Source: an uncultured Actinomycetes bacterium
GTDB taxonomy: Bacteria > Actinomycetota > Actinomycetes > S36-B12 > UBA10799
DNA: 64,000 bases
Reading direction: 5' to 3'
NCBI GenBank assembly: GCA_964547485.1
Contig: CAZJNU010000006.1
Coordinates: 1,863-65,862, forward strand
Shown: piece after piece, positions 8,367 through 47,767 of the stretch
Layout: every line of letters starts with the position of its first letter
Position numbering within the stretch: the stretch's first letter is position 1
The notes under the pieces: generated by a model
Database searches by the model: none
Seen by the model: the letters and a program-made list of their open reading frames with translations, nothing else
What the model was told of the DNA's origin: nothing
Translations under genes and position numbers: made by a program

Positions 8367-8367
8367 C

Positions 8368-19602: not shown

Positions 19603-19604
19603 GG

Positions 19605-20591: not shown

Positions 20592-21564
20592 CGAGCGCCA
20601 ACTCCTTCTTGTCGCCGAGGATCCCTTGCGGCCGATAGATCATCAGCAGCATCAGCGAGGCCCCGAGGATCCAGTAGCGCACCTGACCGACCTGGTCGCT
20701 GCGGATGAAGCTGATGGTGCCATCCTGCACAGCCCCGGCCAACGCGCCGTCGATGAACACCAGCAGGAACCAGAACACGATTGCGCCGAGCACCGGCCCG
20801 AGCACCCGGCCGGCACCACCCAGGATCAGCACCGCGTAGGCAAAGAAGGTCAGGTCGGTGGCGAAGAAGTCCGGTTGCACCGACTGGAACGCGACCGCGG
20901 CGACGAAGCCACCGAAGCAGCCGAGCACGCCGCCCAAGATCAGCGATTGCATCTTGTAGAAGTAGACGTTCTTGCCGAGGCTGCGGACCGCGTCCTCGTC
21001 TTCCCGGATTGCCTTGATCACGCGACCCCACGGGGCACGCATCAGCAGGAACACGAGAACGCAGCAGGCAGCCACCAGCAGCCAGCCGATGGTGACGACC
21101 CACAGATCGTTCGCGCTGAGGTCGATCGGACCCATTTTCAGCGGCTGCGAATACGGCGACAATTCGTAGAACTCGTCGGCGAACTTGTTGAGGCCGTCGG
21201 ACCCACCGAAGATCTCCCGGAAGGTCACCGAGCGCACCAACAACCGGATGATCTCGGCTGCGGCGATGGTGACGATCGCCAGGTAGTCGGCCCGCAGTCG
21301 GAGCGTCGGCAGACCGAGCAGCAGCGCCAACAGCACGGCGGCGACGATGCCGACGATGATGCCGATCCAGAGCGGCAACCCGAGGAAGACGATGGTGACG
21401 CCGAGGCCATAGGCGGCAACCGCGAGGAAGCCTGCCTGCCCGAAGTTGAGCAGGCCTGTATACCCGAAGTGCACGTTCAGGCCGATCGCAGCCAGCGCGA
21501 AGATCACCGCCTGCACACCCAAGCCCTGGGTGATGGCCTGGCTGAAGATGTTTCCCCAGTCCAT
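20581..21564 (-). CDS. livM: ABC transporter permease (LivM-like)
   Basis: Multi-TM protein with GYTGLLNFGQAGFLAVAAY. Overlaps the livG start. Confidence 0.9.
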   Translation of the reverse strand: MDWGNIFSQAITQGLGVQAVIFALAAIGLNVHFGYTGLLNFGQAGFLAVAAYGLGVTIVFLGLPLWIGIIVGIVAAVLLALLLGLPTLRLRADYLAIVTIAAAEIIRLLVRSVTFREIFGGSDGLNKFADEFYELSPYSQPLKMGPIDLSANDLWVVTIGWLLVAACCVLVFLLMRAPWGRVIKAIREDEDAVRSLGKNVYFYKMQSLILGGVLGCFGGFVAAVAFQSVQPDFFATDLTFFAYAVLILGGAGRVLGPVLGAIVFWFLLVFIDGALAGAVQDGTISFIRSDQVGQVRYWILGASLMLLMIYRPQGILGDKKELALDAR

Positions 21565-21577
21565 GTCCGCGCCCCCT

Positions 21578-27046: not shown

Positions 27047-27220
27047 ATGAGTGCGCAGCCTGACGAGCCGAGCATCGTCGTAGTCATTGATGATCCGAAC
27101 GCGGACAAGCTCGTCCCGTTCACCGAATGGCTGGCTCTTGTCGGGGTGAAGGCGCCAGTCACATTGCCCAAGCCCGCCGCGCTTTATCTGGATGAGGCCA
27201 GGGAGGCCGGTGAAGTGTGA
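27047..27220 (+). CDS. small putative antitoxin (57 aa) of the downstream PIN toxin
   Basis: ATG at 27047. In-frame stop at 27218-27220 overlaps the GTG of the PIN gene (GTGA). Too short for the ORF track; no recognisable domain. Confidence 0.45.
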   Translation: MSAQPDEPSIVVVIDDPNADKLVPFTEWLALVGVKAPVTLPKPAALYLDEAREAGEV

Positions 27221-27624
27221 GCCCGGTTGTCCTCGACGCTTCGGCAGCCGTCGAAATCATCCTGAACACCGTCACAGGCCAGCAACTCAAATCCCGCGTC
27301 GCAACTGACGACGTGTGGGTGCCTGAACATTTCTACATCGAAATTGCTGGCGTCTTTCGGCGGATGCAACGCAACGGTGCGATCACCACGACCAACGCAG
27401 GCGAGGCATTCACCGAACTGATCACGCTGCGGGCCAATCGTGCCCAAGTCAAGACGCTCCTTCCTGCGGCGTGGGCGATTCGCGCCAACATCACCGTTGC
27501 GGACGCTGTTTACGTCGTCCTGGCTCAGCAGCTAACCGCTCCGCTCGTCACCGGCGACAACCGTCTTGCCCGCGCACCATCGCAGGCCCTCGGCGGAATT
27601 CAGGTCATCAGCCCAAGCGGCTAA
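27217..27624 (+). CDS. vapC: PIN-domain toxin (VapC-like)
   Basis: VVLDASAAVEIIL...EHFYIEI...ADAVYVVLAQQL..PLVTGDNRL PIN acidic pattern, 135 aa. Confidence 0.82.
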   Translation: MSPVVLDASAAVEIILNTVTGQQLKSRVATDDVWVPEHFYIEIAGVFRRMQRNGAITTTNAGEAFTELITLRANRAQVKTLLPAAWAIRANITVADAVYVVLAQQLTAPLVTGDNRLARAPSQALGGIQVISPSG

Positions 27625-28060
27625 CTCAAACGAGGCGAAGCTGACCGGCGACAAACTGATCGGTAACGGTCTAACCGACCTTGATCACAAGCTGCACGCA
27701 AACGAGCAATTACGGTCGCGCGTTTCAGGCCTCAATATGGAGGACGGGGTTGTGGGGGAACCGGGCGCCCAATCGCGTGTCCGAAACCTCAAGCGACCGA
27801 AACCCAGCGATGAGACGTTTTCGGGCGGACCCAACTACTGATGACATGTGGCAGTAAAGGGTCGGCCAAATGATGAAACCTGAGGTTTGCACGCGTGCCC
27901 GGCTTCCAAGATCATCGCTAGCGCTAACCGCTGCACGAATCCTCCCCGAACCCCCGACCCCCGACCCCGGACCATACTTCGCGCTGGGGCAGCAGCGGCG
28001 CTGGCTGGTCGACAGTGCGGTGGCTGACCCCTGCGACCGCCACCCCCTAGGATCGGGCAG

Positions 28061-30769: not shown

Positions 30770-31285
30770 TCAGGTGTAGCCGTCGGCCTGCAGGTCGAAG
30801 AGGAGTTGCTGCGCTGCCCGTAGTTGGTCCGCTTCGTCTGCTTCGTCGGGCTCACCCATCCAGGTGGCATGGAGAACCTCGAAGCCGTCCGCCCGCAGGG
30901 CGTCCACGACCACCGGGTCGTCGTCCACGATGAGGTCCACGCCGGCTCGGTCGCGGAGCCGCCGGGCGACCGCCAGCTTCGTCAGACGGCCGGGTCGACG
31001 GTCGCGGTCCGGGCGCATGAACAGTTGGGCTGCAGGCAGACCCTGGGCCGTGAGCCACGCCGACGTCGCGGCCCGGCATCGCTCCGGTCGTCCGGTCGAA
31101 TAGACGACGTGCCGTCCGAGCGACAGCTGCTCGTCGATCAGGTCGCGCCCCTGCGCCAGCAGCGGGTCGTCCGGGGCAAGAGCGAAGAACTGCTCCCAGT
31201 CCTTCGGGGTGGTACGGATGGCAGACAGTCTGTGGCGCACGTCGGCCAGGACACCATCGATGTCGAAGATCGCGAACCGAGCCAC
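30770..31285 (-). CDS. HAD-superfamily phosphatase-like protein
   Basis: FDIDGVLAD motif I, STGRPE motif II region, and a DDD motif near the C-terminus. Confidence 0.72.
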   Translation of the reverse strand: MARFAIFDIDGVLADVRHRLSAIRTTPKDWEQFFALAPDDPLLAQGRDLIDEQLSLGRHVVYSTGRPERCRAATSAWLTAQGLPAAQLFMRPDRDRRPGRLTKLAVARRLRDRAGVDLIVDDDPVVVDALRADGFEVLHATWMGEPDEADEADQLRAAQQLLFDLQADGYT

Positions 31286-31320
31286 AGCGGGACGCTAGCG
31301 CACAGCCGCGGAATACGCTG

Positions 31321-31785
31321 GTGGGCATGGCCATCGATTTCGAGACAGTGCGCACGAGTATGCCGACCGCCGTCCCCATGATGGGAACGCTGAACATTAA
31401 GTTTCTGGAGCTGGAATCGCAACGGTGTCTGCTCCGGTTGCCCGACAGTGCGGAATATCACAATCACATCGGTGGCCCCCACGCCGGCGCGATGTTCACG
31501 CTGGCCGAGTCCGCATCCGGTGCCCTGGTGCTGACGAATTTCGGGGATCGCCTTGCCGAGGCGACGCCGCTGGCGGTGGAGGCGACGATCCGCTACCTGA
31601 AGGTGGCGATGGGTGACGTTACTGCAGAGGCCACGATGGCCAGTGACCCTGCGGACGTACTCGCCGAACTGGCCGCCGGCAGCCGGCCGGAATTTGAGGT
31701 GGTGGTCACGATCCGTGACCGCGACGGTGTCGACACCGGCATCATGACGGTGCTGTGGACGCTCCGGCCGAACCGCCGGAGGTAG
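31321..31785 (+). CDS. hotdog-fold protein (PaaI/DUF4442-like)
   Basis: NHIGGPHAGAMFTLAESASG pattern, 154 aa. Confidence 0.62.
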   Translation: MGMAIDFETVRTSMPTAVPMMGTLNIKFLELESQRCLLRLPDSAEYHNHIGGPHAGAMFTLAESASGALVLTNFGDRLAEATPLAVEATIRYLKVAMGDVTAEATMASDPADVLAELAAGSRPEFEVVVTIRDRDGVDTGIMTVLWTLRPNRRR

Positions 31786-32356
31786 CTCCGGCGACCCTGG
31801 CGGCCAGGCCGAGCGGATCGGCGAACTCCACCCCTGGCTCTGTCGCCAGTGCCCGCACGAGCACCGGCTGCGAGACAAGCGCCGGGTCGACCGCGAGCAC
31901 CCGGCCACCCGCGGCCAACACCTGTCGAGCGCCCGCCAACCCGTCGTTGTTCGCACAGCTGAGCCCCACCACGGTGGCAGCGGAACCGAAGGCGTCGGCG
32001 GCGCTTTCGAAGGCGGAATCGATCGACGGAATGCTGTAGCTCTGGCGCGGTTCCGACGACAGCGTCGGCCCACTGCGGCCGATCAGCGTGTGGTACCCCG
32101 GGGGGGCCAGGTAGACCTGATCCGGTCGGTAGTAGGTCAGGTCCTCAACCTCGACAACCTCCAGCCGACCCACCCGACCCAGTCGATGGGCCAGTGCGGC
32201 GCCGGCCCGGACGTCCATCCCGCGGTGCAGGATGAACACCACCGGAATTGCCAGCAACGGCGGAAGCTTGGTCAGAATCGCTTCCACCTGACCCATCGAG
32301 CCAGCGCTGCCGCCGATGACGACCACCCCGTCGGCCTCTGCCCGGGTGGTCACCAC
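31742..32356 (-). CDS. cheB: CheB-type protein-glutamate methylesterase, catalytic domain only (no receiver)
   Basis: VVIGGSAGSMG (Ser), VVFILHRGMD (His), IPSIDSAFESAA (Asp). The GTG GTG at 32356/32353 overlaps the cheR stop (GTGA). Confidence 0.8.
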   Translation of the reverse strand: MVTTRAEADGVVVIGGSAGSMGQVEAILTKLPPLLAIPVVFILHRGMDVRAGAALAHRLGRVGRLEVVEVEDLTYYRPDQVYLAPPGYHTLIGRSGPTLSSEPRQSYSIPSIDSAFESAADAFGSAATVVGLSCANNDGLAGARQVLAAGGRVLAVDPALVSQPVLVRALATEPGVEFADPLGLAARVAGATSGGSAGASTAPS

Positions 32357-33195
32357 TTCCGCCGATAGAGCCGGGAGCGCTGGTCGATCGTGTCCAGTTG
32401 TCGGGCATGCGCCGAACCGCGAGAGGACTCCCGAGAGCCGAGCCCAAGCACGCCGCCTGGGACCAGCGACTCGAACAGAATCTCGTGCACCCGGGCGTGC
32501 AGTTCGGCGTTGAAGTAGATCAGCACATTGCGACACAAAATGAGATCGAACGAATTGAAGCTGGCATCGGATGCGAGGTTGTGCCGGGCGAAAACGATGC
32601 GCTCGCTGAGCGTCCGGTCGAACAGGGGTTCCTCGCCGGTCGACCCGCCGCCGGAGATTGGGAAGTAGTCGGCCAGGGCTGCGGTGCCGCCGCTTGCGAG
32701 GTAGTCATGGTTTCCGGCTGAGATACGGTCCGGAGCGACGAAACCGGCGCGCGCCTGGGCGAGGGACTGCTCGTTGATGTCGGTTGCGTAGATCCGGAAC
32801 CGCTGTGGTGACAACCCGCTCTCGACGAGGGTGATGGCCAACGAGTAGGCCTCCTCGCCGGTGGCCGCACCCGCCACCCAGGCGCGGACCAGGGTGCGGG
32901 AGTCGAAGGCCGGCAGCACGTCCGAACGCAGTGTGGCCCACATGCCTGGATCTCGGAACAGGTGGGTGAAACCCAGGCTCAGGGAGTCGATGACATCATC
33001 GACCAGCAGCGGGTTCTCCCCGACCCGCGCGGCCAACTCTGTGACGCCGCCGTTCATCCGGTGGCGGTCGGCGACGCGCCGGAGTCGCCGGATCACGAAC
33101 GGGCGTTGGTAATTGTTGAAGTCGGCGCCGCGGGTGGCCAGCACGGCAGCCAGCACGTGATCGACCGCGCCGTCGAGTTCAGCGGGTTCGAGCAC
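32350..33195 (-). CDS. cheR: CheR-type protein-glutamate O-methyltransferase
   Basis: THLFRDPGMW, RAWVAGAATGEEAYSLAI, IYATDIN, ILCRNVLIYF. Overlaps the kinase gene end by 17 nt. Confidence 0.85.
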   Translation of the reverse strand: MLEPAELDGAVDHVLAAVLATRGADFNNYQRPFVIRRLRRVADRHRMNGGVTELAARVGENPLLVDDVIDSLSLGFTHLFRDPGMWATLRSDVLPAFDSRTLVRAWVAGAATGEEAYSLAITLVESGLSPQRFRIYATDINEQSLAQARAGFVAPDRISAGNHDYLASGGTAALADYFPISGGGSTGEEPLFDRTLSERIVFARHNLASDASFNSFDLILCRNVLIYFNAELHARVHEILFESLVPGGVLGLGSRESSRGSAHARQLDTIDQRSRLYRRKW

Positions 33196-36100
33196 CGAGC
33201 CACACCCGGATCAGGGACACCAACTGTTCGGCATCGATTGGCTTCGTCAGGTAGTCCGAGGCCCCCGAGGCCAGGCTCCGGGCCCGGTCCTCCGGCATGG
33301 CCAAGGCGGTCACGCTGATCACCGGAAGTTGCGCCGTCGCGGGGTTGGACCGGATTCGCCGGGTGGCCTCCAGCCCATCCATCACCGGCATCATTACGTC
33401 CATCAGTACAAGTTCCACGTCACCACGTTCGGCGAGCACGGCCAGTGCCTGCTGGCCATCCTCGGCGTCCAGGACCTCCATCTCGTGTTGCTCCAGGATC
33501 GTTGCAAGAGAGAAGACATTCCGTGGATCGTCGTCGACAACCAGCACCACCCGGCCGGCCAGGTCGGGGTCCCGTTCGTAGAGCGCGGCCACCATCTGCT
33601 GCTGCTCGGCAGGCAGATCGGTCGAGACTCGATGCAGGAACCGAATCGTCTCGTCGATGAGTCGGGCATGGGCACTTTGATCCTTGGCGATCACTGCGCT
33701 CGCCACATGTTTCAACTCCGCCAGCCCGCCGGTGCTTTCGTCCGGGTCGTAGAACACGATCAACGGCAGGGACTGGCTGAGCGGTTCCTCACGCAGTGCC
33801 CGCAGCACGGACTGACCATCGTCACCCGCGGTCGCCAGGTCCACCACGACTGCGTCGAATCCTCGTTCCCTTATCGCGGGCAGAGCTGTCGTCACATCGG
33901 TGAACACCTGCACGTCAAGGTCGCCGCCGCGCAGTAGTGACGAAACGGCGGTCGCCTCATCGGGGTCCGACTCCACGACTACCACCCGCCGCGGCTGACC
34001 TGCCAGCATCTGGGTGAACCTGTGCAGCACCCCGGCGATGTCGGCCGCCGCAGCCGGCTTGATGAGGGTGCCATTGACGCCCAGCGCTGCCAGCGCGGAC
34101 TCTGAACCGGAGATTATCTGCACCGGCGTGTGCCGGGTCTGCTGGTCGTGTCGAATCCGATCGAGGAGTACCCAACCGTCCATGTCCGGCAAACCGAGGT
34201 CGAGCGTGATCGCATCGGGGGCGCGTGCCGCGAGGAATTCCAGCGCCTGCTGGCCGCTGCCCGCGATCTCGGTGTGGAACCCCAGAGCACGCGCCTCGTC
34301 CGCGATCAGCGAGGCGAACAACGGGTCATCCTCAATGATCAAAAGAACCGAGCCAGCTGGATCGACTGTCTCCGGCTGAGTCTGACTTTCAGCGCCGGGT
34401 CGGACTTCGGTCACGGGGGTTGGCACAGGCATCTCTACACTTGCGGCCGCTGCTGGCGGGTGGAGAAACGCCGATCCGCTCCCAGCTGGTCCGTCAGCAG
34501 CAGGTGGAGCAGCCGTGGCCATCTGGCCGCTGTCTGTCGATGCGGCAGGAGGGCCTGCGATAGGCAGCGTTAATTCGAACTGCGAACCGACCCCCTGCTC
34601 GCTTCGGACGACGAGGTCGCCGCCCATCTTCCGTGCCAGTTCCTGCGCGATCGACAGTCCCAGTCCCGTACCGGCGGTGGTGTGGCCGCGGGCGTTACCC
34701 AGTTGTTTGAACGGTTCGAACACCGCGGCGAGGTTTTCCTCGGCGATCCCGGACCCGGTGTCAGCAACTGTGAAGGAGACGAATTCGCCACTGACCGCGA
34801 CCGTCAGGTCCACTGATCCCACGATCGTGAACTTCACCGCATTGGACAGCAGGTTCTTCAGGATCTGCTCGACTCGTAGCCGATCTGACACGATCGAATC
34901 CGGCGTACCCGGACTGACGCTGATCCCCAGCTGGAGTCCCTTCTCCTCGGCAAGGGGTCGGAACTGGCGGTTCAGCGCTGCGCAGACGGCCTCGATCGGC
35001 ACCTGTTCGGCAGCAATGTCGATCTTCCCCGCCTCCACCTTTGACAGGTCGAGGACATCGTTGATCAACGCCAGCAAGTCCTTGCCGCAGGCGTTGATGG
35101 TGGCCGCGAATTCCACCCGACGCTCCACCGGAAGCGACTCCGGACTCTTCACGAGCCGCTCGCTGAGGATGAGCACGCTGTTCAACGGAGTACGCAATTC
35201 GTGCGACATCTTGGCCAGGAAGGCCGACTTGTAGGCCGAGGCCTGGTCCACGATCTCGGTGCGGAGCAGCAGATCCTGGTGCGCCTGCTCAAGTGCCACA
35301 TTGCGCTCGGCGAGGGCGGCCTGCTGTTCCTCCATCAGCGCGGCCCCCTCCTCCAGGCCTACATTGGCGTCCTCCAACTCCCGTGACTGCGACTCCAGTT
35401 CCTCCGTCTGAGACTGCAGCTCCTCTGCCTGGGCCTGGAGTTCCTCGGACTGCGCCTGTGCCTCCTCGAGGAGTTCAAGGGTCCGTTGCTGAGCGTGGCG
35501 GACGGCCAGGTGCAGTCCGATCAGGTCCGCCGACTGGGTCAGCACTTCGCGGGCTTCGGCCTCGAAGGTCCCGAATGTGGCGACCTCCAAAACGCCCAGG
35601 GTCTTTCCGCCTGCGACGCAGGGGATCACCGCAATCTGGGCGGGCTTCGCGGCGCCAAGAGCTGACTCGACAGTCAGATAGTCGGCTGGAGCCGCCATGA
35701 ACCTGGCCTGCTGATCTGCGGCTGCCTGGCCCACCAGCCCCTCGAGGAATGCGATCCGCTCGGGAACCCGGTGACCGTCGCTGGCTCCGACAGCCGCGAC
35801 CCGGACCAGCGTCTGTTGGTCAGTCCGCGCCGTCTCATACAGCACTGCGGTAGGGGCCTCGGCGGACATGGCCAGCAGCGTGAGTACCTCGTCGTCAGCC
35901 GTGCTGGCATCGCTCTCGCCCTGCATGCTGCGGCTGATCCCGAGCAGGGTCTCCTGCACCCGATCGTCGGCATCCCGGGCGTCCCTGGCGCCGGCGAGCG
36001 ATGTTCGCATCGCGTCGATCTTCGTGCCGAGTGAACCCAATTCGTCTCGACCAGTGACGGTCACCGGCGAGTCGAGCTTGCCCGCGCCGATGAGGTCGGC

Positions 36101-36775
36101 ACTGCCCTCCAGCAACTTGAACCGGCGTGACAGGTTGCGCCCCAGGATGACCAGCAGGATCGTGCTGCTGGCCGCAATCAACAGCAGTACGCCGTAGAGG
36201 ATGTACTGGGTTGTGGTGAGCTCGTCGGAGAGCTCTGTCGAGATCCGATCTCTGATTCCCTGTGCATGTTCGACGTTGATGAACTGGTCGAGTTCCTGCG
36301 TGAGCTGGTCATGAGTTGCAGGATTCTGCGCGACGGCGATGAACGGCTGCAGGACGGAACGCGGCGCCTCGCCGGTTGCCACCCGGTCGGCCGCCGTGAG
36401 CGCAGGGTCGACGGTCCCATCCACCCAGGACTGCACCGAGGCGAAGACCGCTGCGTCCTGGGATGTCGGATCAGTCGCAATTACATTCGAGATCGCCTGG
36501 TCGATCCTGTTGATCTCCTCCTTGGCGCGTGCTCGCCAGACGGGATTGAGTGTCGTCAGGTAGTCGGTGCGGGCGGCGTCGAGGCTCTCCACCGCCAACT
36601 GCATCGCGCGCAACTCGCGGACGTCGGAGGTGGCCACGGTCAGTTGGTCATTCAGTTGCTCGGCCCGGCCGACCGCACTGATCGCGACCGCGCCGCCAGC
36701 GGCACCCAGCAGCAGCGTGCAGCCCAGCACCAGGCCAACCTTCACCGGGATCTTCCGGTTGTCCAGCCAACTCAT
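33179..36775 (-). CDS. hybrid sensor histidine kinase: TM, helical extracytoplasmic sensor, TM, HAMP, GAF, coiled coil, HisKA, HATPase, three receiver domains
   Basis: Two TM segments flank a helical domain of about 170 aa. HAMP region (RRFKLLEGSADLIGAGKLDSPV). H-box FLAKMSHELRTPLNS. N/G boxes NLLSNAVKF and DTGSGI, GTGLGLSI. Receivers at LLIIEDDP..., VVVVESDP... and VLVVDDDP...MDVMMPVMDG. Confidence 0.9.
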   Translation of the reverse strand: MSWLDNRKIPVKVGLVLGCTLLLGAAGGAVAISAVGRAEQLNDQLTVATSDVRELRAMQLAVESLDAARTDYLTTLNPVWRARAKEEINRIDQAISNVIATDPTSQDAAVFASVQSWVDGTVDPALTAADRVATGEAPRSVLQPFIAVAQNPATHDQLTQELDQFINVEHAQGIRDRISTELSDELTTTQYILYGVLLLIAASSTILLVILGRNLSRRFKLLEGSADLIGAGKLDSPVTVTGRDELGSLGTKIDAMRTSLAGARDARDADDRVQETLLGISRSMQGESDASTADDEVLTLLAMSAEAPTAVLYETARTDQQTLVRVAAVGASDGHRVPERIAFLEGLVGQAAADQQARFMAAPADYLTVESALGAAKPAQIAVIPCVAGGKTLGVLEVATFGTFEAEAREVLTQSADLIGLHLAVRHAQQRTLELLEEAQAQSEELQAQAEELQSQTEELESQSRELEDANVGLEEGAALMEEQQAALAERNVALEQAHQDLLLRTEIVDQASAYKSAFLAKMSHELRTPLNSVLILSERLVKSPESLPVERRVEFAATINACGKDLLALINDVLDLSKVEAGKIDIAAEQVPIEAVCAALNRQFRPLAEEKGLQLGISVSPGTPDSIVSDRLRVEQILKNLLSNAVKFTIVGSVDLTVAVSGEFVSFTVADTGSGIAEENLAAVFEPFKQLGNARGHTTAGTGLGLSIAQELARKMGGDLVVRSEQGVGSQFELTLPIAGPPAASTDSGQMATAAPPAADGPAGSGSAFLHPPAAAASVEMPVPTPVTEVRPGAESQTQPETVDPAGSVLLIIEDDPLFASLIADEARALGFHTEIAGSGQQALEFLAARAPDAITLDLGLPDMDGWVLLDRIRHDQQTRHTPVQIISGSESALAALGVNGTLIKPAAAADIAGVLHRFTQMLAGQPRRVVVVESDPDEATAVSSLLRGGDLDVQVFTDVTTALPAIRERGFDAVVVDLATAGDDGQSVLRALREEPLSQSLPLIVFYDPDESTGGLAELKHVASAVIAKDQSAHARLIDETIRFLHRVSTDLPAEQQQMVAALYERDPDLAGRVVLVVDDDPRNVFSLATILEQHEMEVLDAEDGQQALAVLAERGDVELVLMDVMMPVMDGLEATRRIRSNPATAQLPVISVTALAMPEDRARSLASGASDYLTKPIDAEQLVSLIRVWLGARTR

Positions 36776-37815
36776 GACTGCCGGCCTTCGCCAGACTCTT
36801 CCGCACCGGAGATGACCAGGCCGGAGCCCGCCTTCTTCGCCTCATACATGGCCCGGTCGGCCGCCGCCAGGATCTGGTCGATCGTGACGTTGTGGGACGC
36901 GAGGTGCAGAGCGAGGCCGACGCTGCCCGGTGCCGCAACGAATCGGCCGTCACTGAGTTGGTAGTCGGCGGCGAGCGCCCCGTGGATCCGCTCGCCCATA
37001 CTTGCGAGGTCGTCGTCATCCTGGATCTCCTGCACGACGACGCAGAACTCGTCACCGCCGAGCCGGGCCACCAGGTCGTACGGTCGCGCGATGCCGCGAA
37101 GTCGGCCTGCAGCCAGCACCAGGACCTCATCACCCGCCGCATGGCCCAGCGTGTCGTTGATCGTCTTGAATCCGTCCAGATCGATCACTGCCACCCCGTG
37201 ATGGCGGCCGGAGCGCTGCTGGTGGGCGCGGACTGCCGCCAGCGAATTCATCAGTTGCCGACGATTCATCAGGGAGGTGAGTGGGTCTGTCGCGGCAAGC
37301 AACTGCAAGTTCGCGTTGGCCTCCGACAATTGCTGTTCAATCGCCCGAAGCCGATCCCGTTGCCGTTCGATTTGCTTCAACTGTTGGGCGAGGGTGCAGA
37401 AGACGTTGACCTTTGACTGCAGAATCTGCGGTACGACCGGCTTCGACAGGTAGTCCACCGCCCCCAGGTCGTACCCGGCCGACATCGCGTCGTCATTGAA
37501 CGCGTACCCGGTGACGAACAGGATGGGTGTCGTTGCCAGTCGAGGATTTGCCCGGACCAGGCCGGCGAGCTCGAACCCCGTCATGTCGCCGAGGTTGACA
37601 TCGAGCAGGATCGCCGCAGGTGTGGTCTTGCGCAGCAGCCGCAGCGCTTCCGTTCCGGATGCGGCGAACACCAGTTCCCGGTCCGGTTCGGCGAGCAGAT
37701 CGCCGATGAGCAGATTGGCGTTGGGATCGTCATCGATCACCATCACCACGACGGGATCGATCGGCTCGGTTGGTGCCTCCGACTCAGCCACCTGTGACCC
37801 TTTCGATCGTGCCAC
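36772..37815 (-). CDS. response regulator with GGDEF diguanylate cyclase output
   Basis: Receiver VVMVIDDDP...LLDVNLGDMTG...KP. GGDEF active site RLGGDEF with an RPYD (RxxD I-site) 5 residues upstream. The stop overlaps the kinase start (ATGA). Confidence 0.9.
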   Translation of the reverse strand: MARSKGSQVAESEAPTEPIDPVVVMVIDDDPNANLLIGDLLAEPDRELVFAASGTEALRLLRKTTPAAILLDVNLGDMTGFELAGLVRANPRLATTPILFVTGYAFNDDAMSAGYDLGAVDYLSKPVVPQILQSKVNVFCTLAQQLKQIERQRDRLRAIEQQLSEANANLQLLAATDPLTSLMNRRQLMNSLAAVRAHQQRSGRHHGVAVIDLDGFKTINDTLGHAAGDEVLVLAAGRLRGIARPYDLVARLGGDEFCVVVQEIQDDDDLASMGERIHGALAADYQLSDGRFVAAPGSVGLALHLASHNVTIDQILAAADRAMYEAKKAGSGLVISGAEESGEGRQS

Positions 37816-37935
37816 GGCAGGCCGTCTGCCCCCGGGCTCGCCGGCGCCGGGATCGGCGTCTCGCTTCGAGTATGGCCGGGAATCAGGTGTGAGTCAGGCT
37901 CGGCGGAAATCTCCCCGATGCCCAGCGGCTTCCGG

Positions 37936-39063
37936 TCAGTGGCAGGCGTCGGAACCGGCGTCGGTGAACGTGCCATTGCCGTCGAAGGTCGCGGGTATGT
38001 ACTGCCAGGAGTACCCCGCCGAGGCCAGTTGCAGTTTCAGCACTCCGAAGGTGTCGTCGTTGCGCGCCTCTGATTGTGGATTTCCGCCTTCGGAGACCGA
38101 GTACAGGCTCTTGCCGCCCATCCCCACGACGAACTCCCGGACGCCGTTGGGGTTTTCGGAACCGTCCGACGTCAGCGGTGGGAACCGCTCGTAGGAGTGA
38201 TTGTGGCCGTTGAGGACGACTTCGGCCCCGGCCTTTTCGAGGAGCTCCCAGAGCGGCCGCACGGCCGAGGACCCGCTGTGCTTGCCGTTGGTGAACAGTG
38301 GTCGATGCCAAAAGGCGAGGGTGCATTTCGACTCGTTCGCCGCGAGGTCCTGCCGGAGCCACTCGTACTGCGGTGATCCCTGCCCGCACTCCACCCCAGT
38401 TTCGGAGTTGCATTCGGAATTCAGGGCGATCACGTGCCAACTTCCGATCGAGCGGCTGTACCACCCTTGGTAGCTCCGGCCAGCCACCCCGGACGGGTTC
38501 GGTGACTCTTCGGTACCGCCATTGAAGTAGGCCCAGTAGCCGGGGGCTTTCGCGAACTCCGCGTCACCGTTGCCGTATTCGTGGTTCCCGGGGACAGGCC
38601 ACAGTCTATTGGTGGCCGGGTCGGTTGCGTTCAGAAAGCGCCCCCAGGACTGCGCGAAGGATGCGCGGAAAGCGTCCAGCCGACCATCCTGGTACTGGTT
38701 GTCGCCGAGGGTGAGAACCGCATCGGGGGAGAGGCTGGCGGCTGCCTCCGCGGTCGCGGCCTGTCGGCAGTGGTCGCCGTCACCACGGCCGTCATTGAAG
38801 TCCGAATCGTCCGGGGCGCAGGCAATGTCGCCGACCGCGGCGATCGTCACGGTGGCAGGGGTCTGGCCGGGGGAGCGGCTCGCGTCAACGGGGGACCGAG
38901 GAGGGGATTGGCGTCCGCCGGTCGGGGCTGCGGGGGAAGTGGTGGCTGGTCCGCTGCCTGAGGAGGCTGCGGTCGGGGGACTCTGGCCGCTGCATCCGGT
39001 CCCGGCCGCCCCGAGTGCGGCAGCGGTCAGCAGCACCGTCGTCACCCGACCCCGGCTGTTCAC
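37936..39063 (-). CDS. secreted calcineurin-like metallophosphoesterase (lipoprotein)
   Basis: The GTG at 39063 gives VNSRGRVTTVLLTAAALGAAGTGC|S. Motifs AVGDIAC, LGDNQY, GNHEY, GHNHSYER. The upstream part of the track ORF is Arg/Ser-rich and non-coding-like. Confidence 0.78.
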   Translation of the reverse strand: MNSRGRVTTVLLTAAALGAAGTGCSGQSPPTAASSGSGPATTSPAAPTGGRQSPPRSPVDASRSPGQTPATVTIAAVGDIACAPDDSDFNDGRGDGDHCRQAATAEAAASLSPDAVLTLGDNQYQDGRLDAFRASFAQSWGRFLNATDPATNRLWPVPGNHEYGNGDAEFAKAPGYWAYFNGGTEESPNPSGVAGRSYQGWYSRSIGSWHVIALNSECNSETGVECGQGSPQYEWLRQDLAANESKCTLAFWHRPLFTNGKHSGSSAVRPLWELLEKAGAEVVLNGHNHSYERFPPLTSDGSENPNGVREFVVGMGGKSLYSVSEGGNPQSEARNDDTFGVLKLQLASAGYSWQYIPATFDGNGTFTDAGSDACH

Positions 39064-39100
39064 ACGCGGGATCCTAGCGTCCGGCCCGGCAGCCCGTGGG

Positions 39101-40042
39101 TCATCCTGCGACGGGAGCTGCTTGCTGTTGCGGTGCGCGGGCAGTCGGTCCGCCGCTGGCAATCCGATCGCGCAGCATCGCCCGATCGATGGCGACGCCG
39201 TCAGTGGACTCCAGGAATCCCAACACAGTCCTGGCGAATCGCGCCGGCTCATCCATGTGCGGGAAATGCCGCGACTGCTCGAAGATCTCCAATTGGCTGC
39301 CCGGGATCGCCTGGTGAGCCGCATAGGCGTGGGAGACCGGGATGAGGGTGTCCAACGCACCCCAGACAATCAGAGTGGGGCGACCCTCGCCGAGGTAGAG
39401 CCGGTCGGCTGCGCTGACACGCTGGCCACCTGGTTCGACCACACTGCGCAGCGAGTGCACGAACGCCGTCCGGGCAGGTCCGTCTGCCAGTGACGCGTAG
39501 CCGCGTGCCACCTCGGCCACCGATGGCCGGGGTCGAATCGGGACTCGCCGAAGCAGGCGGCCGACTGCCACCCCAGCGTCGCGGACCCGGCGATTGGCGA
39601 TCACCGGCAGGACGAACTCGGCGCCGGGCAGGGTGGCGGCCCGCAGCGCCGGGGTCACCTCGCGGCCGAGACCGCCACTATCCACCAGCACTACCCGCTC
39701 GCAGTACTCGCTGTACTGATAGGCGAATTGCAGAGCCACGCCGCCGCCGAGGGAGTGCCCGACGATGGTGACCCGATCGTGGCCGAGGTGTTCCAGCAGG
39801 TCGCGCAGGCCGCTAGCGAACCCGCCAAGGGAGTAGTCGGTGCGGGGCTTGTCCGACTCGCCATGGCCCAACAGATCGGGCGCGATCACGTGCGCGTGCT
39901 CTGCCAATGCCGGGATCACCGGGTCCCAGGTGGCGCTGCTGCTGGTGATCCCATGAATCATCAGCAGCACGGGCAGGTTGGGGTCGCCCGCGACTCGGTA
40001 CACCATTCTGTGCCCGTGCAGGGTCACCTCTGTCTGTTGCAT
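39101..40042 (-). CDS. alpha/beta-fold hydrolase
   Basis: LLMIHGITSSSATW, nucleophile elbow GHSLGG, 313 aa. Confidence 0.85.
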   Translation of the reverse strand: MQQTEVTLHGHRMVYRVAGDPNLPVLLMIHGITSSSATWDPVIPALAEHAHVIAPDLLGHGESDKPRTDYSLGGFASGLRDLLEHLGHDRVTIVGHSLGGGVALQFAYQYSEYCERVVLVDSGGLGREVTPALRAATLPGAEFVLPVIANRRVRDAGVAVGRLLRRVPIRPRPSVAEVARGYASLADGPARTAFVHSLRSVVEPGGQRVSAADRLYLGEGRPTLIVWGALDTLIPVSHAYAAHQAIPGSQLEIFEQSRHFPHMDEPARFARTVLGFLESTDGVAIDRAMLRDRIASGGPTARAPQQQAAPVAG

Positions 40043-40181
40043 GGCGACCTCCTATTGCTGGTCATCCCAGCAGACCATGCCAGCGGCGCCTGCCGACACC
40101 CGGGGGTCGCGGTTGCCCCGGACGCAACGGCGCAGCAGGCCGGTTAGCTGCCGAATTAGTCACAGTCTAGAGTCAATCCCT

Positions 40182-42548
40182 GTGGCAAATAGATCACTGT
40201 TCACACGGGGAAGCTCCAGCGACTGGCCACGAGCAGTTCGACTGCTTCCGTTGGCCGCGGCGATCGCCTCCTACGTCTTGATCGTCTTTGGCAGTCATGT
40301 CCGCGTCAGCGAATCGGGGATGGGGTGCCCCGACTGGCCACTGTGCTACGGCCAGCCAGGGCCAATCCTGGAGTTTCACGCCTTGATGGAACAGGGACAT
40401 CGCTATCTAGCAGCCGTGGTCTCACTGTTGGTGCTGGTAACCGCAGTCCTGGCGTTCTGGTATCGACGTTCACGCCCGGCAGCGGTTCGGCCAGCGATGT
40501 TCACGGTGGTCATGCTGGGTGTTCAGGTACTGCTCGGGGCCGTCACAGTGTTCGCCGGCAATGGGTCGCCGACGGTGGCTCTGCACCTCATCGGGGGCCT
40601 TTCGCTGCTGGCCGGGGCCACGGTCACGGCGCTCTGTGTGTTCCTCCCCAAGGTCCAAGTCGCCGGTGCTCGGCTGCGTCGGCTGGCGTGGGCCGGTGTT
40701 GCGGCAGTGGCACTGCTCGTTACCTCAGGGTCGTTGATCGTCGACGCTGCGGTCGAGGGTCTGTGCCCCAGCATTCCGTTCTGTCCGGCGGGCAGCTCTG
40801 GGGCCGAGACAATGCTGCATGTGGGCCACCGCAGCGTGGCGTTGGTGACCGGGGTGGTGGTCTGGGCGCTCGCGATCCACGCCTGGCGACAGTGGTCCGG
40901 GGTGCGCGGGGCCCGCCCACTGGCGGTCCTTTCCGCGGGCATGATCCTCCTCACCGCCGCAATCGGCGTCACCTCTGCCCTACTGATGGCACCCCCGGAA
41001 TGGGCAGACCTTCACCTGGCAGGTGCCGCTGCGGTGCTGGTGAGCGTCGTGAGTCTGACGACACTCGGCTGGCTGTCGGGGGCAGACGCTGTCGGTGATG
41101 GCACCGGAGGGCGGGGTGACCAAATCGTGGCAGCCTCGCCCGACGACCACCGCCCGGCCACCTCCAGGACCAGGGTTCGCGATGGTGTGCTGGTGTCTGC
41201 GCTCACGGTCGTCCTTGTTGCCATCGGCTACCTCATGGGGGCCCAGCAGGGAGCAGCCAATCCCTCCGATCCCGAGGCCGGGTCCGCCAGCGCTGCCGTG
41301 ACTCCAACCGGTCACACGACCATGGCGGAGGTCACGATCGAGGATATGCGTTTCGTCCCCGATCTGATCGAGGTGCCAGCGGGGGACACACTAGAGATTC
41401 GGCTGGCCAACCACGACGATCGCGACCATGACCTCGTACTGGACTCGGGTCAACGAACGGCCCGGCTGGCCACCGGAAGCACCGAGACCCTCAGCGTCGG
41501 AGTTGTGACGGACCCGATTGAAGGGTGGTGTTCGATTGCTGGCCACCGATGGCTGGGAATGGCACTGAAAGTGGCAGTCATCGGAGGTTCGCCACCCAGT
41601 GATGCCGACTCCGAGGCACCCCACGGTTCCGGATCCCACAAGATGCCGATGGCCACGGCTTCGGGGGATGAGGTTGGTGACCTGGATCTGATGGCCTCGC
41701 CTGAGGCGACTTTTGCCGCGCACAATCCGGCACTCGCGCCGTCCACTCGGCAAGCAGTACACAGGGTCCGGCTTCCGGTGACCCAGCGTGAGTACGAGGT
41801 CGCCCCCGGGGTGCGACAGACACGCTGGACGTTCGCCGGGTCGGCACCGGGGCCGACACTTCGCGGAAGGGTGGGCGACAAATTCGAAATCACACTGATC
41901 AACCGAGGCGACATCGGGCATTCGATCGACTTCCACGCCGGCGCGCTTGCCCCGGATCGTCCAATGCGCACCATCGAGCCCGGACAGGAATTGCGCTACA
42001 ACTTCACCGCCACCAAGGCAGGAATCTGGCTCTACCACTGTTCAACCATGCCAATGTCGATGCATATCGCCAATGGCATGTTCGGTGCGGTGATAATCGA
42101 CCCGCCTGACCTTCCGGAGGTCGACAAGGAGTTTCTGCTGGTGCAATCCGAGTTGTACCTTGGACCGCAAGACGGCACCGCAGACCCGTCCGACATCGCT
42201 TCTGAACACCCTGATCTGGTGGTGTTCAACGGGTACGCCAATCAATATGACCATCGGCCGTTGCAGGTGGGCAGAGGCGAGCGGATCCGCATCTGGGTAC
42301 TGGCAGCCGGACCGAACCGGGGCAGTGCTTTTCACATCGTGGGCGGTCAGTTCGACACGGTCTACGCCGAAGGCAGCTACCTGCTGCGCCCAGGCACTTC
42401 CGTCGGCGGTTCGCAGGTGCTCGGATTGGCCACAGCTCAAGGCGGGTTCGTCGAAACCACCTTGCCCGAACCCGGCAGGTACCCGTTTGTGTCGCACACC
42501 ATGGCCGATGCCGAACGAGGAGCCCACGGGGCGGTGGTGGTCCGATGA
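40182..42548 (+). CDS. fusion protein: COX15/CtaA-like polytopic heme-binding membrane domain, cupredoxin domain, and NirK-like two-domain multicopper nitrite reductase
   Basis: N-terminus GSHVRVSESGMGCPDWPLCYGQ plus repeated His in TM helices (GHRYL, ALHLIGG, HVGHRS, DLHLAG). Middle VTIEDMRFVPDLIEVPAGDTLEIRLANHD. C-terminus GHSIDFHAG and LYHCSTMPMSMHIANGMFGAVIIDP (type 1/type 2 Cu ligand pattern of NirK). The GTG at 40182 avoids overlap with the divergent hydrolase gene. Confidence 0.8.
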   Translation: MANRSLFTRGSSSDWPRAVRLLPLAAAIASYVLIVFGSHVRVSESGMGCPDWPLCYGQPGPILEFHALMEQGHRYLAAVVSLLVLVTAVLAFWYRRSRPAAVRPAMFTVVMLGVQVLLGAVTVFAGNGSPTVALHLIGGLSLLAGATVTALCVFLPKVQVAGARLRRLAWAGVAAVALLVTSGSLIVDAAVEGLCPSIPFCPAGSSGAETMLHVGHRSVALVTGVVVWALAIHAWRQWSGVRGARPLAVLSAGMILLTAAIGVTSALLMAPPEWADLHLAGAAAVLVSVVSLTTLGWLSGADAVGDGTGGRGDQIVAASPDDHRPATSRTRVRDGVLVSALTVVLVAIGYLMGAQQGAANPSDPEAGSASAAVTPTGHTTMAEVTIEDMRFVPDLIEVPAGDTLEIRLANHDDRDHDLVLDSGQRTARLATGSTETLSVGVVTDPIEGWCSIAGHRWLGMALKVAVIGGSPPSDADSEAPHGSGSHKMPMATASGDEVGDLDLMASPEATFAAHNPALAPSTRQAVHRVRLPVTQREYEVAPGVRQTRWTFAGSAPGPTLRGRVGDKFEITLINRGDIGHSIDFHAGALAPDRPMRTIEPGQELRYNFTATKAGIWLYHCSTMPMSMHIANGMFGAVIIDPPDLPEVDKEFLLVQSELYLGPQDGTADPSDIASEHPDLVVFNGYANQYDHRPLQVGRGERIRIWVLAAGPNRGSAFHIVGGQFDTVYAEGSYLLRPGTSVGGSQVLGLATAQGGFVETTLPEPGRYPFVSHTMADAERGAHGAVVVR

Positions 42549-44721: not shown

Positions 44722-45474
44722 TCAGTCTCGACCGATCGTCTGCCAACGCCGGGACGTTCCCGGATTGGGGATGTGAGCAGCTGCCCTGCTCCGGTAGACG
44801 ATGTACGGCCGGGTCAGATAGAACACGGGGGCACTGAAGGCGTGCACCAACCGCCCCCAGGGGAAGAGCGCGAAGAAGAGCCAGGCGATGGTCACGTGGA
44901 CCTGATAGATCGTCGGCGCACCGACCATCAGCGAAGGGTCCGGCTGAAGGTAGAACAGGCTGCGGAACCATTCACCGACCGTCGGACGGTAGTTGTAGCC
45001 GGGACCGAAGATGTTGTAGCCCACGGTCTCGGCCATTCCCAGCAGGATCATGATCCACAGGATTATGAAGGTCATCAGGTCGGTCCAGGTGGTGGCGCTG
45101 CGCACTCGGGGATTGTGGAGTCGGCGCGCGGTGAGTATCGCCAGCCCGGCCACGCACAGCACCACCGCGAATCCGCCCGCATACTTCGACACGGAGGCGT
45201 ATAGGGATTCGTTGATACCGAAGAACTCAGTCCAGGATTCGGGTATCAAGATGCCGAGCACATGCCCGGCGATTGCCAGCAGCGCGCCGTAGTGGAACAT
45301 CATCGCGCCGATGATGAGCCACTTCTTTTCATACAGTTCCGAGGACCGGCTGCCCCATCCGTACTTGTCGAACCGATATCGCCACACCAGCCCGACGACG
45401 AAAACGGAAATCCCGATGTAGGGCAGGATTCCGAAGAGCAACCAGTCCCAGGTGCTTGCGGTGGAATCGGTCAT
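44722..45474 (-). CDS. narI: respiratory nitrate reductase gamma subunit
   Basis: WDWLLFGILPYIGISVFVVGLVWRYRFDKYGW...MMFHYGALLAIAGHVLG, 250 aa. Confidence 0.93.
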   Translation of the reverse strand: MTDSTASTWDWLLFGILPYIGISVFVVGLVWRYRFDKYGWGSRSSELYEKKWLIIGAMMFHYGALLAIAGHVLGILIPESWTEFFGINESLYASVSKYAGGFAVVLCVAGLAILTARRLHNPRVRSATTWTDLMTFIILWIMILLGMAETVGYNIFGPGYNYRPTVGEWFRSLFYLQPDPSLMVGAPTIYQVHVTIAWLFFALFPWGRLVHAFSAPVFYLTRPYIVYRSRAAAHIPNPGTSRRWQTIGRD

Positions 45475-46130
45475 CTGCGGGCCCCGCTCACGCTGGCGTT
45501 CTCAATCTGGTACACGTCCAACCCAACCGACTCCTCGGGCGGGCCCTCAGCGGCCAGCGACACCACTGCGGCAAGATCGGCGTCGTCGAGTCGGGGTAGC
45601 ACGGCGAGTACGGCAGCGATCAACGGCGCGAAAGGGTCGTCGAAATCGGCCAGGGAGCGACGCAACAGTTCCAATGACCGCCGATGTGATCCCAGCAACC
45701 GGATCCCGCGGGGTTCGTCGGCCGCGAACTCCAACAGCAGCGGAAGGTAGTCCGGGAGTTCCCCGCTGCTGATGTCGTAACCGTGTCGTAGGAGTACATG
45801 TTTGATCTGCAGGAGCGCGGCCCCCCGATTGCGGGTATCGCCATGAGTGAGGTACGTCAGATGCAGGGGAGTTCTGCGTCGGAAGTCGAACGCGGCGACG
45901 TAACGTTGTTCGCGCTCGTCGGCGGGTAGTGCGACCCACCAAACCGTAAATGATGTAAGGGCATCGGCGGCGCCCCCGGCAGGCAATTGCCGTGACCGAA
46001 CAATCAGATCGGGGTAGAGCGCGACCGTGTCCGGCGTCGGGTAATCCAGCAAGACCGAAACGATCGACAACAGCGTGGATGTTCCCGCCGGGTCGAGTGA
46101 TCGCCGGGAGGACCTGCGCAGGATGCTCAT
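45471..46130 (-). CDS. narJ: nitrate reductase molybdenum cofactor assembly chaperone
   Basis: Position between narH and narI. The ATG at 46130 overlaps the narH stop. LLDYPTPD...YVAAFDFRRRTPLHLTY pattern. Confidence 0.85.
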   Translation of the reverse strand: MSILRRSSRRSLDPAGTSTLLSIVSVLLDYPTPDTVALYPDLIVRSRQLPAGGAADALTSFTVWWVALPADEREQRYVAAFDFRRRTPLHLTYLTHGDTRNRGAALLQIKHVLLRHGYDISSGELPDYLPLLLEFAADEPRGIRLLGSHRRSLELLRRSLADFDDPFAPLIAAVLAVLPRLDDADLAAVVSLAAEGPPEESVGLDVYQIENASVSGARR

Positions 46131-47767
46131 AACGCACCTGCCTGACCGAACGGGTTGCCCGTGGTCAGCTCGCCGTTCCACCCGAGCAGGTTGAACCGTT
46201 TGTTGCCGTCCCCGTCGACAAAGATGCTGCCACTGCCGTCTGTCGCCGGGATTCCTCCGGAACCCAACCCGCGAAACTCTGCGCCCTGACCCTGCCCGAC
46301 GAGTGCTTCGGCGACTCCGGGGCCGCCAGGGAAGTCCAGGCTGCAGTGCTGCGTCTGCAGTGCACCGGCGTCCTCGCGGTGAGCGGTCGGGATGACGTAT
46401 CGGTCTCGGTACTCGCCCACCGCCAGCAGTCGGAACAACTTCTCAACGTCATCGTCATCGAATCCGACGGCAGCGAGGAGGTCGTCGGGCACATCCTCAC
46501 CGAACTGCATGGCCCGCTTGACTGCCCGCAGCACCGTAAGTCTCCGCAGAGCGTCGCGCACCGGAGCCGCATTTCCGGCCGAGAAGATCGAAGCGAGGTA
46601 GTCGATGGGAATTCGCAGATTCTCGATCCCCGCCAGCACCTTCTGGGTGTCGTCGGCATCGAAACCGGCATCGGCGGCATTATCGGCCATTGGAGCAAGC
46701 GGAGGGACGTACCAGACCATCGGCATCGTGCGGAACTCGGGATGCAGCGGAAGCGCCACCCGCAAATCCTTGGCCAAAGCGTAAACCGGTGAGTTCTGAG
46801 CCGCCTGCAACCAGTCGAACGGCACGCCACTGCGCTCTGCGGCACGGAGGACCTCTGGGTCGCGCGGATCCAACATTACGCGTCGATGGGCCTCGACGAG
46901 GTCGTGCGCCTCAGGGGTCTGGGCCGCGGCCGTCACCGCGTCCACGTCATACAGGACCACGCCGATGTAACGGATACGGCCGACGCAGGTCTCCGAACAA
47001 ATGGTTGGCTGACCATCCTCGATCCGGGGGTAGCAGAACGTGCACTTCTCGGCCTTGCCGCTGACGTGGTTGAAGTAGACCTTCTTGTAGGGGCAGCCCG
47101 ACACGCACATCCGCCAGCCGCGACAGGCATTCTGATCGACCAGCACGATCCCGTCCTCGACGCGTTTGTACATGGCGCCCGAGGGGCAGGAGGCGACACA
47201 TGCCGGGTTAAGGCAGTGGTTGCAGATCCGGGGGAGGTAGAACATGAACACTTGCTCATACTCAAGCTGCGCCTGCTGTCCCAGGGAGGCTGCGTTCGGG
47301 TCCTGCTGGAAGCGCTCGTTGGTGCCGGCGAGGTTGTCATCCCAGTTGGGTCCCCAGGTGAGCTTCAACGGCTCTCCGGTCAACCGGGATCGGGATTGGA
47401 CGACGGGGGAGTGTTCCTGCAGCGGAGCACTGACCAGGTTGGCGTATTCGTAGGTCCACGGCTCATAGTAGTCGTCGATTTGAGGCAGGTCGGGATTGCC
47501 GAAGATGCTGAGCAGTTTGCGGATTCGGCCGCCGGCCTTGAGTTTGAGTCGGCCCTTGCCGTCCAGGGCCCAGCCGCCCTTCCAGTGTTCGTTGTCCTCC
47601 CACCGCTTGGGATAGCCGACCCCAGGTTTGGTCTCAACGTTGTTGAACCACACGTAGTCGGTACCCGAACGGTTGGTCCATGCTTGTTTGCAGGTGACGC
47701 TGCAGGTGTGGCACCCGATGCATTTGTCCAGCGCCATCACCATCATCAGTTGCGCCCGCACCCGCAT
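46127..47767 (-). CDS. narH: respiratory nitrate reductase beta subunit
   Basis: MALDKCIGCHTCSVTCK and further Fe-S Cys clusters, 546 aa. Confidence 0.97.
   Translation of the reverse strand: MRVRAQLMMVMALDKCIGCHTCSVTCKQAWTNRSGTDYVWFNNVETKPGVGYPKRWEDNEHWKGGWALDGKGRLKLKAGGRIRKLLSIFGNPDLPQIDDYYEPWTYEYANLVSAPLQEHSPVVQSRSRLTGEPLKLTWGPNWDDNLAGTNERFQQDPNAASLGQQAQLEYEQVFMFYLPRICNHCLNPACVASCPSGAMYKRVEDGIVLVDQNACRGWRMCVSGCPYKKVYFNHVSGKAEKCTFCYPRIEDGQPTICSETCVGRIRYIGVVLYDVDAVTAAAQTPEAHDLVEAHRRVMLDPRDPEVLRAAERSGVPFDWLQAAQNSPVYALAKDLRVALPLHPEFRTMPMVWYVPPLAPMADNAADAGFDADDTQKVLAGIENLRIPIDYLASIFSAGNAAPVRDALRRLTVLRAVKRAMQFGEDVPDDLLAAVGFDDDDVEKLFRLLAVGEYRDRYVIPTAHREDAGALQTQHCSLDFPGGPGVAEALVGQGQGAEFRGLGSGGIPATDGSGSIFVDGDGNKRFNLLGWNGELTTGNPFGQAGAL

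Follow-up and report, generated by a model that had tools for sequence, protein, structure and literature searches.

What do the methylation enzymes CheR and CheB act upon when no chemoreceptor is encoded beside them? Reversible glutamate methylation is usually seen as a property of chemoreceptors, also called methyl-accepting chemotaxis proteins (MCPs). The question is raised by a minus-strand operon at 31742-37815 of the window, the whole stretch of 64,000 nucleotides of contig CAZJNU010000006.1, from an uncultured Actinomycetes bacterium, that was analysed here. The operon is a compact example of its kind, with a REC-GGDEF cyclase, a hybrid histidine kinase, CheR and CheB in one transcript. 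An earlier interpretation based on the DNA letters alone (the sequence-only reading) had proposed that the kinase is the target of CheR and CheB and that the level of cyclic di-GMP (c-di-GMP) is what the system sets. This proposal is supported by the linkage of the genes across phyla, by a glutamate-rich heptad helix in the kinase, and by the precedents of RsbK/RsbM and cfcABCDE. The operon probably encodes a two-component pathway of the RsbK/CfcA type, in which the sensor kinase would itself be the methyl-accepting protein and would drive c-di-GMP synthesis.

Architecture of the operon and its enzymes

Four coupled genes make up the operon, and the list of open reading frames (ORFs) and the junction sequences bear out the positions assigned to them in the sequence-only reading. 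The REC-GGDEF gene occupies 36772..37815 as its longest ORF, followed on the same minus strand by the hybrid kinase gene (33179..36775, 1198 aa), cheR (32350..33195, 281 aa) and cheB (31742..32356). The last encodes 204 aa with GTG 32356 as its start and 203 aa with GTG 32353, its bounds in the ORF list being 31742-32356/32536. Read from the letters, the GGDEF/kinase junction is an ATGA at 36772-36775, the end of the kinase gene and the start of cheR (GTG at 33195) overlap by 17 nt, and the cheR/cheB junction is a GTGGTGA at 32350-32356. Profile annotation with Pfam agrees with the domain make-up given earlier: REC-GGDEF, a kinase with the order transmembrane (TM) segment-sensor-HAMP-GAF-HisKA-HATPase-REC-REC-REC, CheR, and a CheB without a receiver.

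The cyclase consists of a receiver (Response_reg, residues 24-136), a coiled-coil linker and a GGDEF domain (residues 174-331, E 2e-39). Its RLGGDEF motif is intact in the translation, with an RxxD I-site (RPYD) five residues upstream; both motifs had been claimed. The place and the stop of this gene also stand; its assumed start at GTG 37815 is probably wrong. The GTG at 37791, which gives a protein of 339 aa, is the probable true start, since a GAAAGGG precedes it by 6 nt and 339 aa is also the called length of the homologues.

CheR matches PF01739 with E 1e-34 and, weakly, the CheR_N domain (E 0.0015, below the Pfam cut-off). Its best PDB alignment is with B. subtilis CheR 5FTW (E 1e-22), to which the S-adenosylmethionine-binding motifs AGAATGEEAYSLA, ATDI and CRNVLIYF align, the FRD arginine and the IYF tyrosine being in place. 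The third-position GC of the gene is 0.82. In CheB, Pfam finds CheB_methylest only (E 2e-29), with Ser17, His44 and Asp138 aligning with the catalytic triad of 3SFT, 6YMZ and 1CHD. A receiver domain is absent from the CheB ORF of the window in the Pfam scan, so the methylesterase stands alone, as the sequence-only reading had described.

The catalytic core of the kinase follows a familiar layout, all of it encoded on the minus strand. HAMP covers residues 211-260 (35996..36145; PF00672, E 9.5e-9), GAF residues 311-423 (35507..35845; GAF_2, PF13185, E 5e-9), HisKA residues 516-583 (35027..35230) and HATPase_c residues 631-739 (34559..34885; E 2e-26), followed by three Response_reg stretches. 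His525, within the SHELRTP motif of HisKA, is invariant in the six-kinase alignment A1. At the N-terminus, hydropathy peaks at ~13-35 and ~190-212 bracket a helical segment of ~150 aa, the predicted extracytoplasmic sensor (residues 36-189; 36209..36670), which lies between two TM segments.

The sensor is probably a divergent CHASE3 domain, judged from its alignment to relatives. The equivalent region is recognised as CHASE3 in five relatives and as 4HB_MCP_1 in one. In an hhalign comparison, the window-clade sensor aligns with the CHASE3 set of the relatives at 91% probability and E 1e-6, partly owing to the flanking TM helices, and the profile-profile alignment pairs the window-clade AARTDYLTTLNP with the CHASE3 signature GQRGYLLTGDDQYL. 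When the N-terminal 260 aa of the kinase were used to search for homologues, no matches came back. A single-sequence AlphaFold model of the sensor reached a predicted local distance difference test (pLDDT) score of 48, too poor for interpretation, and was not used.

Candidate methylation sites in the signalling helix

Between the GAF domain and the H-box, a long signalling helix (residues 437-514; 35234..35467, minus strand) is delineated by its heptad layout and by regular expression, and it is kept in homologues. Its heptads at residues 437-471 read EEAQAQS, EELQAQA, EELQSQT, EELESQS and RELEDAN. They contain three EEL units in exact heptad register and heptad-spaced glutamate pairs at 437/438, 444/445, 451/452 and 458/459. 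Glutamate accounts for 27% of residues 437-500 and for 7% of the whole kinase. Further down, AALMEEQQAA (residues 478-487) is the single strict match to the MCP consensus within the helix. The glutamate pairs of 437-459 and the AALMEEQQAA segment are put forward as candidate methyl-accepting sites.

These EELQxQ heptads recur in CheR-linked kinases from other phyla, EELQVQSEELQTQSEELQTQSEELQ of a Planococcaceae kinase being one example. Over the 85 residues preceding the H-box, the EEL count averages 3.0 in CheR-linked kinases vs 0.62 in unlinked ones (Mann-Whitney p = 1e-8, kinship ignored).

Conservation of the kinase-CheR linkage

Searching species-representative genomes and metagenome contigs with the kinase alignment gave 80 loci, in whose six-frame ORFs CheR, CheB, GGDEF and the kinase were searched with local hidden Markov models. 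Kinase homologues are found in ~10 phyla. CheR lies directly downstream of 27 of the 58 kinases that match the family profile well, and in 18 of these 27 loci a CheB ORF then follows, 582-1038 nt long from stop to stop, mostly too short for a receiver. The linked loci belong to Bacteroidota, Pseudomonadota, Cyanobacteriota, Bacillota, Gemmatimonadota, Nitrospirota, Desulfobacterota, Eremiobacterota and Eisenbacteria. The family also includes multi-HAMP kinases from Streptomyces, Nonomuraea and related actinomycetes, which are without CheR and CheB.

Among the nearest relatives, the order of the four genes is kept, in line with the expectation of the sequence-only reading. Loci L001-L003, with CheR 90% and 81% identical, carry the same operon with the same overlaps and flanking genes; L004, with CheR 49% identical, retains the four genes and the overlaps of 4, 17 and 4 nt in a different neighbourhood. 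The order is permuted to kinase-CheR-CheB-REC-GGDEF in L006 (CheR 43% identical). Six kinases align end to end, from HAMP through the last receiver, and the called CheB genes of L001, L003, L004 and L006 encode 195-203 aa of methylesterase only. The receiver-less CheB and the three receivers, first taken for peculiarities of this locus, are thus common to most relatives.

Further afield, a REC-GGDEF gene also adjoins the kinase in L023 (Nevskiaceae) and L074 (Desulfomicrobium). In L007 (CheR 45% identical) a kinase-CheR-HDOD unit directly precedes PilY1 and N_methyl pilin genes (L007:5727-11809); because of this placement, a link of the RsbK-like kinase family to pili is possible in some lineages.

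A proposed pathway from sensor to cyclase

These features suggest a pathway that starts at the cell envelope. The kinase would sense an envelope or ionic cue through its CHASE3-like domain and perhaps a cytoplasmic cue through GAF. From the HAMP and GAF domains, both recognised by profile, the signal would pass into the long helix and on to the HisKA helix. CheR would methylate glutamates of the EEL repeats and the receiver-less CheB would demethylate them, thereby setting or adapting the output of the kinase; this step is proposed because the gene linkage is conserved, the helix carries the motif, and RsbM methylates the equivalent helix of RsbK. Having no inhibitory receiver, CheB is probably active constitutively, and regulation would then operate through the conformation of its substrate helix.

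The phosphoryl group of His525 would then be transferred to the receiver of the REC-GGDEF protein, switching on c-di-GMP synthesis within the limit set by the I-site. The shared operon, the intact motifs and the CfcA-to-CfcR precedent are the grounds for this step. The three C-terminal receivers of the kinase may serve as intramolecular inhibitory or phosphate-sink domains, comparable to the single receiver of RsbK.

Several observations weigh against this pathway. The case for methylation of the kinase is indirect: anatomy, active-site residues, linkage and motif enrichment are read from sequence, and methylation itself, its sites, the route of phosphotransfer and the input are deduced from them. 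The EEL units fit EExx[AS] and not the strict MCP consensus, the strict match AALMEEQQAA could be due to chance since a second one sits in the ATPase domain, and the association of EEL count with CheR is uncorrected for phylogeny. Pfam finds neither CHASE3 nor 4HB_MCP in the isolated sensor segment at E <= 10. An Hpt domain, which could carry phosphoryl groups between a hybrid kinase and the receiver of the cyclase, is found neither in the operon nor among the ~55 scanned ORFs of the window. The window, moreover, spans only 64 kb of the genome. Finally, P. putida mutants in other cfc genes, including cheR and cheB, kept their CfcR-dependent phenotype according to an unpublished remark of the authors (PMC4951495), for which reason the effect of methylation may be subtle.

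Receivers of the kinase and alternative targets of CheR and CheB

The three receivers differ in their state. Receiver 1 (~810-925; 34001..34348) is canonical, with EDD, D859, S and K, as is receiver 3 (1077-1189; 33209..33547), with DDD, D1126, T and K; family alignment and Pfam, respectively, define the two, and both are canonical across the family too. Receiver 2 (~930-1050; 33626..33988, family alignment) is degenerate in the window clade, where ESD replaces EDD and Tyr replaces Thr while the Asp and Lys are retained; it is canonical in most relatives. It ends in LFLHRV (window 33626-33660, residues ~1039-1050), whose H1048 is kept in 24 of the 26 aligned CheR-linked kinases from many phyla. 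All three are encoded on the minus strand. By sequence, the nearest PDB receiver is RssB/Hnr for receiver 1 and PleD for receiver 3 (E 9e-33), with weak generic matches for receiver 2. Of the three, receiver 3 is the one that the cyclase's receiver resembles most (33% identity).

The tail bears on a split form of CheB, in which a phosphorylated receiver of the kinase would control the access or activity of the methylesterase in trans, the likeliest being the degenerate middle receiver or its LFLHRV helix. The only hint of such a circuit is the presence of the three-receiver tail in all 18 CheB-linked kinases, a small number in which kinship is ignored. Among the single-receiver RsbK-like kinases (Bacillota), those of L042 and L050 have CheR without CheB, and that of L043 has neither. 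A CheB-type receiver was sought within the kinase by PDB comparison, and none of the three resembles the CheB receiver by sequence. The suggestion that a kinase receiver, especially the divergent middle one, stands in for that of CheB thus finds no support here, and the split circuit is considered unlikely. If it were true, chemotaxis-style adaptive feedback would act directly on a c-di-GMP-setting histidine kinase in an organism without a chemoreceptor array.

CheR and CheB could instead serve conventional chemoreceptors encoded elsewhere in the genome, in a chemotaxis, pilus or Wsp-like array, their adjacency to the kinase being incidental or a matter of co-regulation. The short span of the window leaves room for such genes, the chemotaxis-type active sites of both enzymes are intact, and three pilin-like ORFs lie at 6528-10498. 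The neighbourhood of the family argues otherwise. The kinase-CheR adjacency recurs in 27 loci of many phyla, with start/stop overlaps in the window clade. A regular expression for the invariant MCP hairpin (by inspection, it matches E. coli Tsr) finds no instance within 8 kb of any of 87 related loci or in the window. Among the 90 same-strand neighbour ORFs of 26 linked loci, no chemoreceptor, CheA or CheW appears in the 25 families listed of the 85 matched, the commonest being Response_reg (16), HATPase_c (11) and HisKA (8). The absence of MCP, CheA and CheW from the window, noted in the sequence-only reading, holds in Pfam scans of ~55 of its ORFs.

The enzymes themselves point in the same direction. 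CheB is without the receiver that couples to CheA. All of the nearest CheR relatives with an inspected gene context are kinase-linked, whereas the matches to chemotaxis CheRs in the PDB reach only E 1e-14 to 1e-22. For the P. putida homologues, PMC4951495 states, in a passage citing Garcia-Fontana 2013, that they have no role in chemotaxis. Service to distant chemoreceptors is accordingly rated as improbable.

That the two enzymes modify a part of the pathway other than the helix, for example a receiver in the cyclase or the kinase, has a precedent in Salmonella, where CheR methylates PhoP on Glu/Asp pairs (PMC8546571), and the kinase offers three receivers, one of them degenerate. The GGDEF partner, however, is not conserved across the family and the kinase is; the EEL-rich helix is the feature that tracks the presence of CheR, and the region mapped in RsbK is the signalling helix (PMC4574943). 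A target outside the helix has, on balance, little likelihood. An equally slim chance is given to an ordinary kinase-cyclase pair with CheR and CheB as silent passengers, or drifted to an unrelated substrate, without regulatory methylation: P. putida mutants in other cfc genes, including cfcB and cfcC, did keep their CfcR-dependent colony phenotype (the same unpublished remark, PMC4951495), but the catalytic residues of both enzymes are conserved, their linkage is maintained across phyla, and the coding signal is strong (CheR third-position GC 0.82, CheB Pfam E 2e-29).

Methylation of the kinase helix by CheR and its reversal by CheB thus remain the preferred account of the operon.

Genomic surroundings and other genes of the window

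Housekeeping genes surround the operon: polA, a HAD phosphatase gene and a convergent DUF4442 gene flank it on one side, and genes for a metallophosphoesterase and an alpha/beta hydrolase flank it on the other. With their 3' ends, cheB and the convergent, thioesterase-like DUF4442 gene share 44 nt (31742-31785), as they do in L001 (11423-11466). Upstream, after the Metallophos gene, the intergenic gap at 37816..37935 is the expected place of the promoter. A sigma-70 consensus scan of 31200-39600 gave no promoter-like site for the operon, and a terminator scan of the same region gave terminator-like matches at chance level only. GC content is uniform across the operon region. Recent horizontal transfer of the operon was considered and left no sign, since its GC of 0.65-0.66 equals that of the surroundings and the synteny with polA is conserved. 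Among named taxa, polA itself is closest, at 64-67% identity, to that of Nanopelagicales, Frankiales, Longivirga and Carbonactinospora, so the host is taken to be an uncultured and probably aquatic bacterium within the class Actinomycetes.

The pilin-like ORFs are three consecutive plus-strand frames at 6528-8366, 8368-8970 and 8834-10498, whose N-termini (GTSLVEAIIAM, GTSLIELMTVIV) are prepilin-like. Pfam matches none of them, the operon is 21 kb away, and they may encode minor pilins or pseudopilins. As the search for type IV pilus genes in the window gave nothing else, the link of the operon to type IV pili that the sequence-only reading had suggested is unsupported. Just downstream of this cluster, a tRNA-Leu (CAA) gene (11872-11946, minus strand) adjoins a 325-aa ORF without a Pfam match (10694-11671), a region that could be an integration hotspot.

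Elsewhere in the window (12427-15722 and 18751-22891), a REC-ANTAR regulator has a Peripla_BP_6 binding protein and a MIP channel as neighbours, and an ABC transporter of the branched-chain amino-acid type is close by; the region resembles an AmiC/AmiR-like antitermination module. Small toxin-antitoxin-type genes, encoding a MazF/PemK-like toxin and two PIN-domain proteins, lie at 15809-17857 and 27217-27841. An unusual 856-aa fusion ORF (39978-42548, plus strand) joins a COX15/CtaA haem A synthase-like membrane domain to cupredoxin and multicopper-oxidase domains and is conserved in L001 and L002 at 765 aa. A respiratory nitrate reductase operon, narGHJI, occupies 44722-51438 on the minus strand, with an alpha subunit of 1223 aa, a beta subunit of 546 aa, and delta and gamma subunits.

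Comparison with known systems

The closest counterpart by architecture is RsbK of B. cereus, which has the order CHASE3-HAMP-GAF-signalling helix-kinase-receiver (PMC4574943). RsbM, a CheR homologue encoded just downstream, methylates the signalling helix of RsbK, and this methylation and the inhibitory receiver jointly repress signalling; RsbM is described as an orphan methyltransferase without a paired esterase (PMC4574943). A passage of the same paper cites 127 RsbK-like kinases in 10 phyla. Both RsbK and the window kinase are membrane kinases of sensor-HAMP-GAF-signalling helix-HisKA-HATPase-REC order with a CheR-type gene directly after, and RsbK-type kinases of Paenibacillus and Planococcaceae, which share the EELQxQ heptads, are homologues of the window kinase. 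The kinase of Paenibacillus athensensis (L042) matches window kinase residues 156-1198 at tblastn E 3e-92, and its neighbours, a STAS protein and a sigma-70 family factor upstream and CheR downstream, form the RsbK/RsbM arrangement.

The differences from RsbK concern both ends of the pathway. The output here is REC-GGDEF, whereas B. cereus uses RsbY, a PP2C phosphatase, and sigma B; the neighbourhood of the window operon contains no gene for a PP2C, STAS or sigma-factor protein. A CheB methylesterase is present here, three receivers take the place of one, and the sensor is not recognised as CHASE3 by Pfam.

The cfcABCDE cluster of P. putida opens with the gene for CfcA, a hybrid kinase with CHASE3 and GAF domains, and continues with a CheR/CheB pair (PMC4951495). 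His496 of CfcA is needed for the activity of the cyclase CfcR (PMC4951495, PMC6849547), and a passage of PMC10950880 reports salt as the signal of CfcA/CfcR. By the published description, then, a GAF hybrid kinase gene is followed by CheR and CheB genes in both systems, and both would have a response-regulator diguanylate cyclase as partner, here a REC-GGDEF protein with intact motifs encoded in the same operon. CfcR, in contrast, is a REC-PAS-GGDEF-EAL protein encoded elsewhere on the chromosome, whereas the window cyclase is a plain REC-GGDEF protein whose gene opens the operon; the hosts differ as well, an uncultured actinobacterium here and P. putida there.

With Wsp, the operon shares CheR/CheB-type enzymes and a REC-GGDEF output with a WspR-like receiver, coiled-coil linker and I-site. 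It differs in that no WspA (MCP), WspB/D (CheW) or WspE (CheA) is found in the window or around the homologues, in that receptor and kinase form one HisKA-type polypeptide, and in the receiver-less CheB. CheB-CheR fusion kinases (CheB_methylest-CheR-PAS-HisKA), common in cyanobacteria and proteobacteria and with linkers rich in EELQ-type repeats, likewise combine methylation enzymes with a histidine kinase without an MCP; in those fusions the partner is a soluble PAS kinase, whereas the window encodes CheR and CheB as proteins of their own, downstream of a membrane kinase. The methylation of PhoP by Salmonella CheR (PMC8546571) is a further case of a CheR enzyme acting on a two-component protein other than a chemoreceptor. 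In that case, the substrate is a response regulator, the enzyme is the chemotaxis CheR, and there is no dedicated gene linkage.

The RsbK-like family ties methylation chemistry straight to a histidine kinase, and only the methyltransferase half of it has been studied, in B. cereus; in the literature searched, no test was found of the version with both CheR and CheB, of the three-receiver tail or of the c-di-GMP link. The window operon is suited to testing whether methylation confers adaptation, that is, a return to baseline, in a second-messenger pathway. In conclusion, the arrangement, at first presented as something new, belongs to a class already described in RsbK/RsbM and CfcA/CfcR (cfcABCDE), of which the window operon is an uncharacterised actinobacterial member and not a new type of system. 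Its interest lies in what the paired esterase adds to the RsbM-only scheme and in the function of the three-receiver tail.

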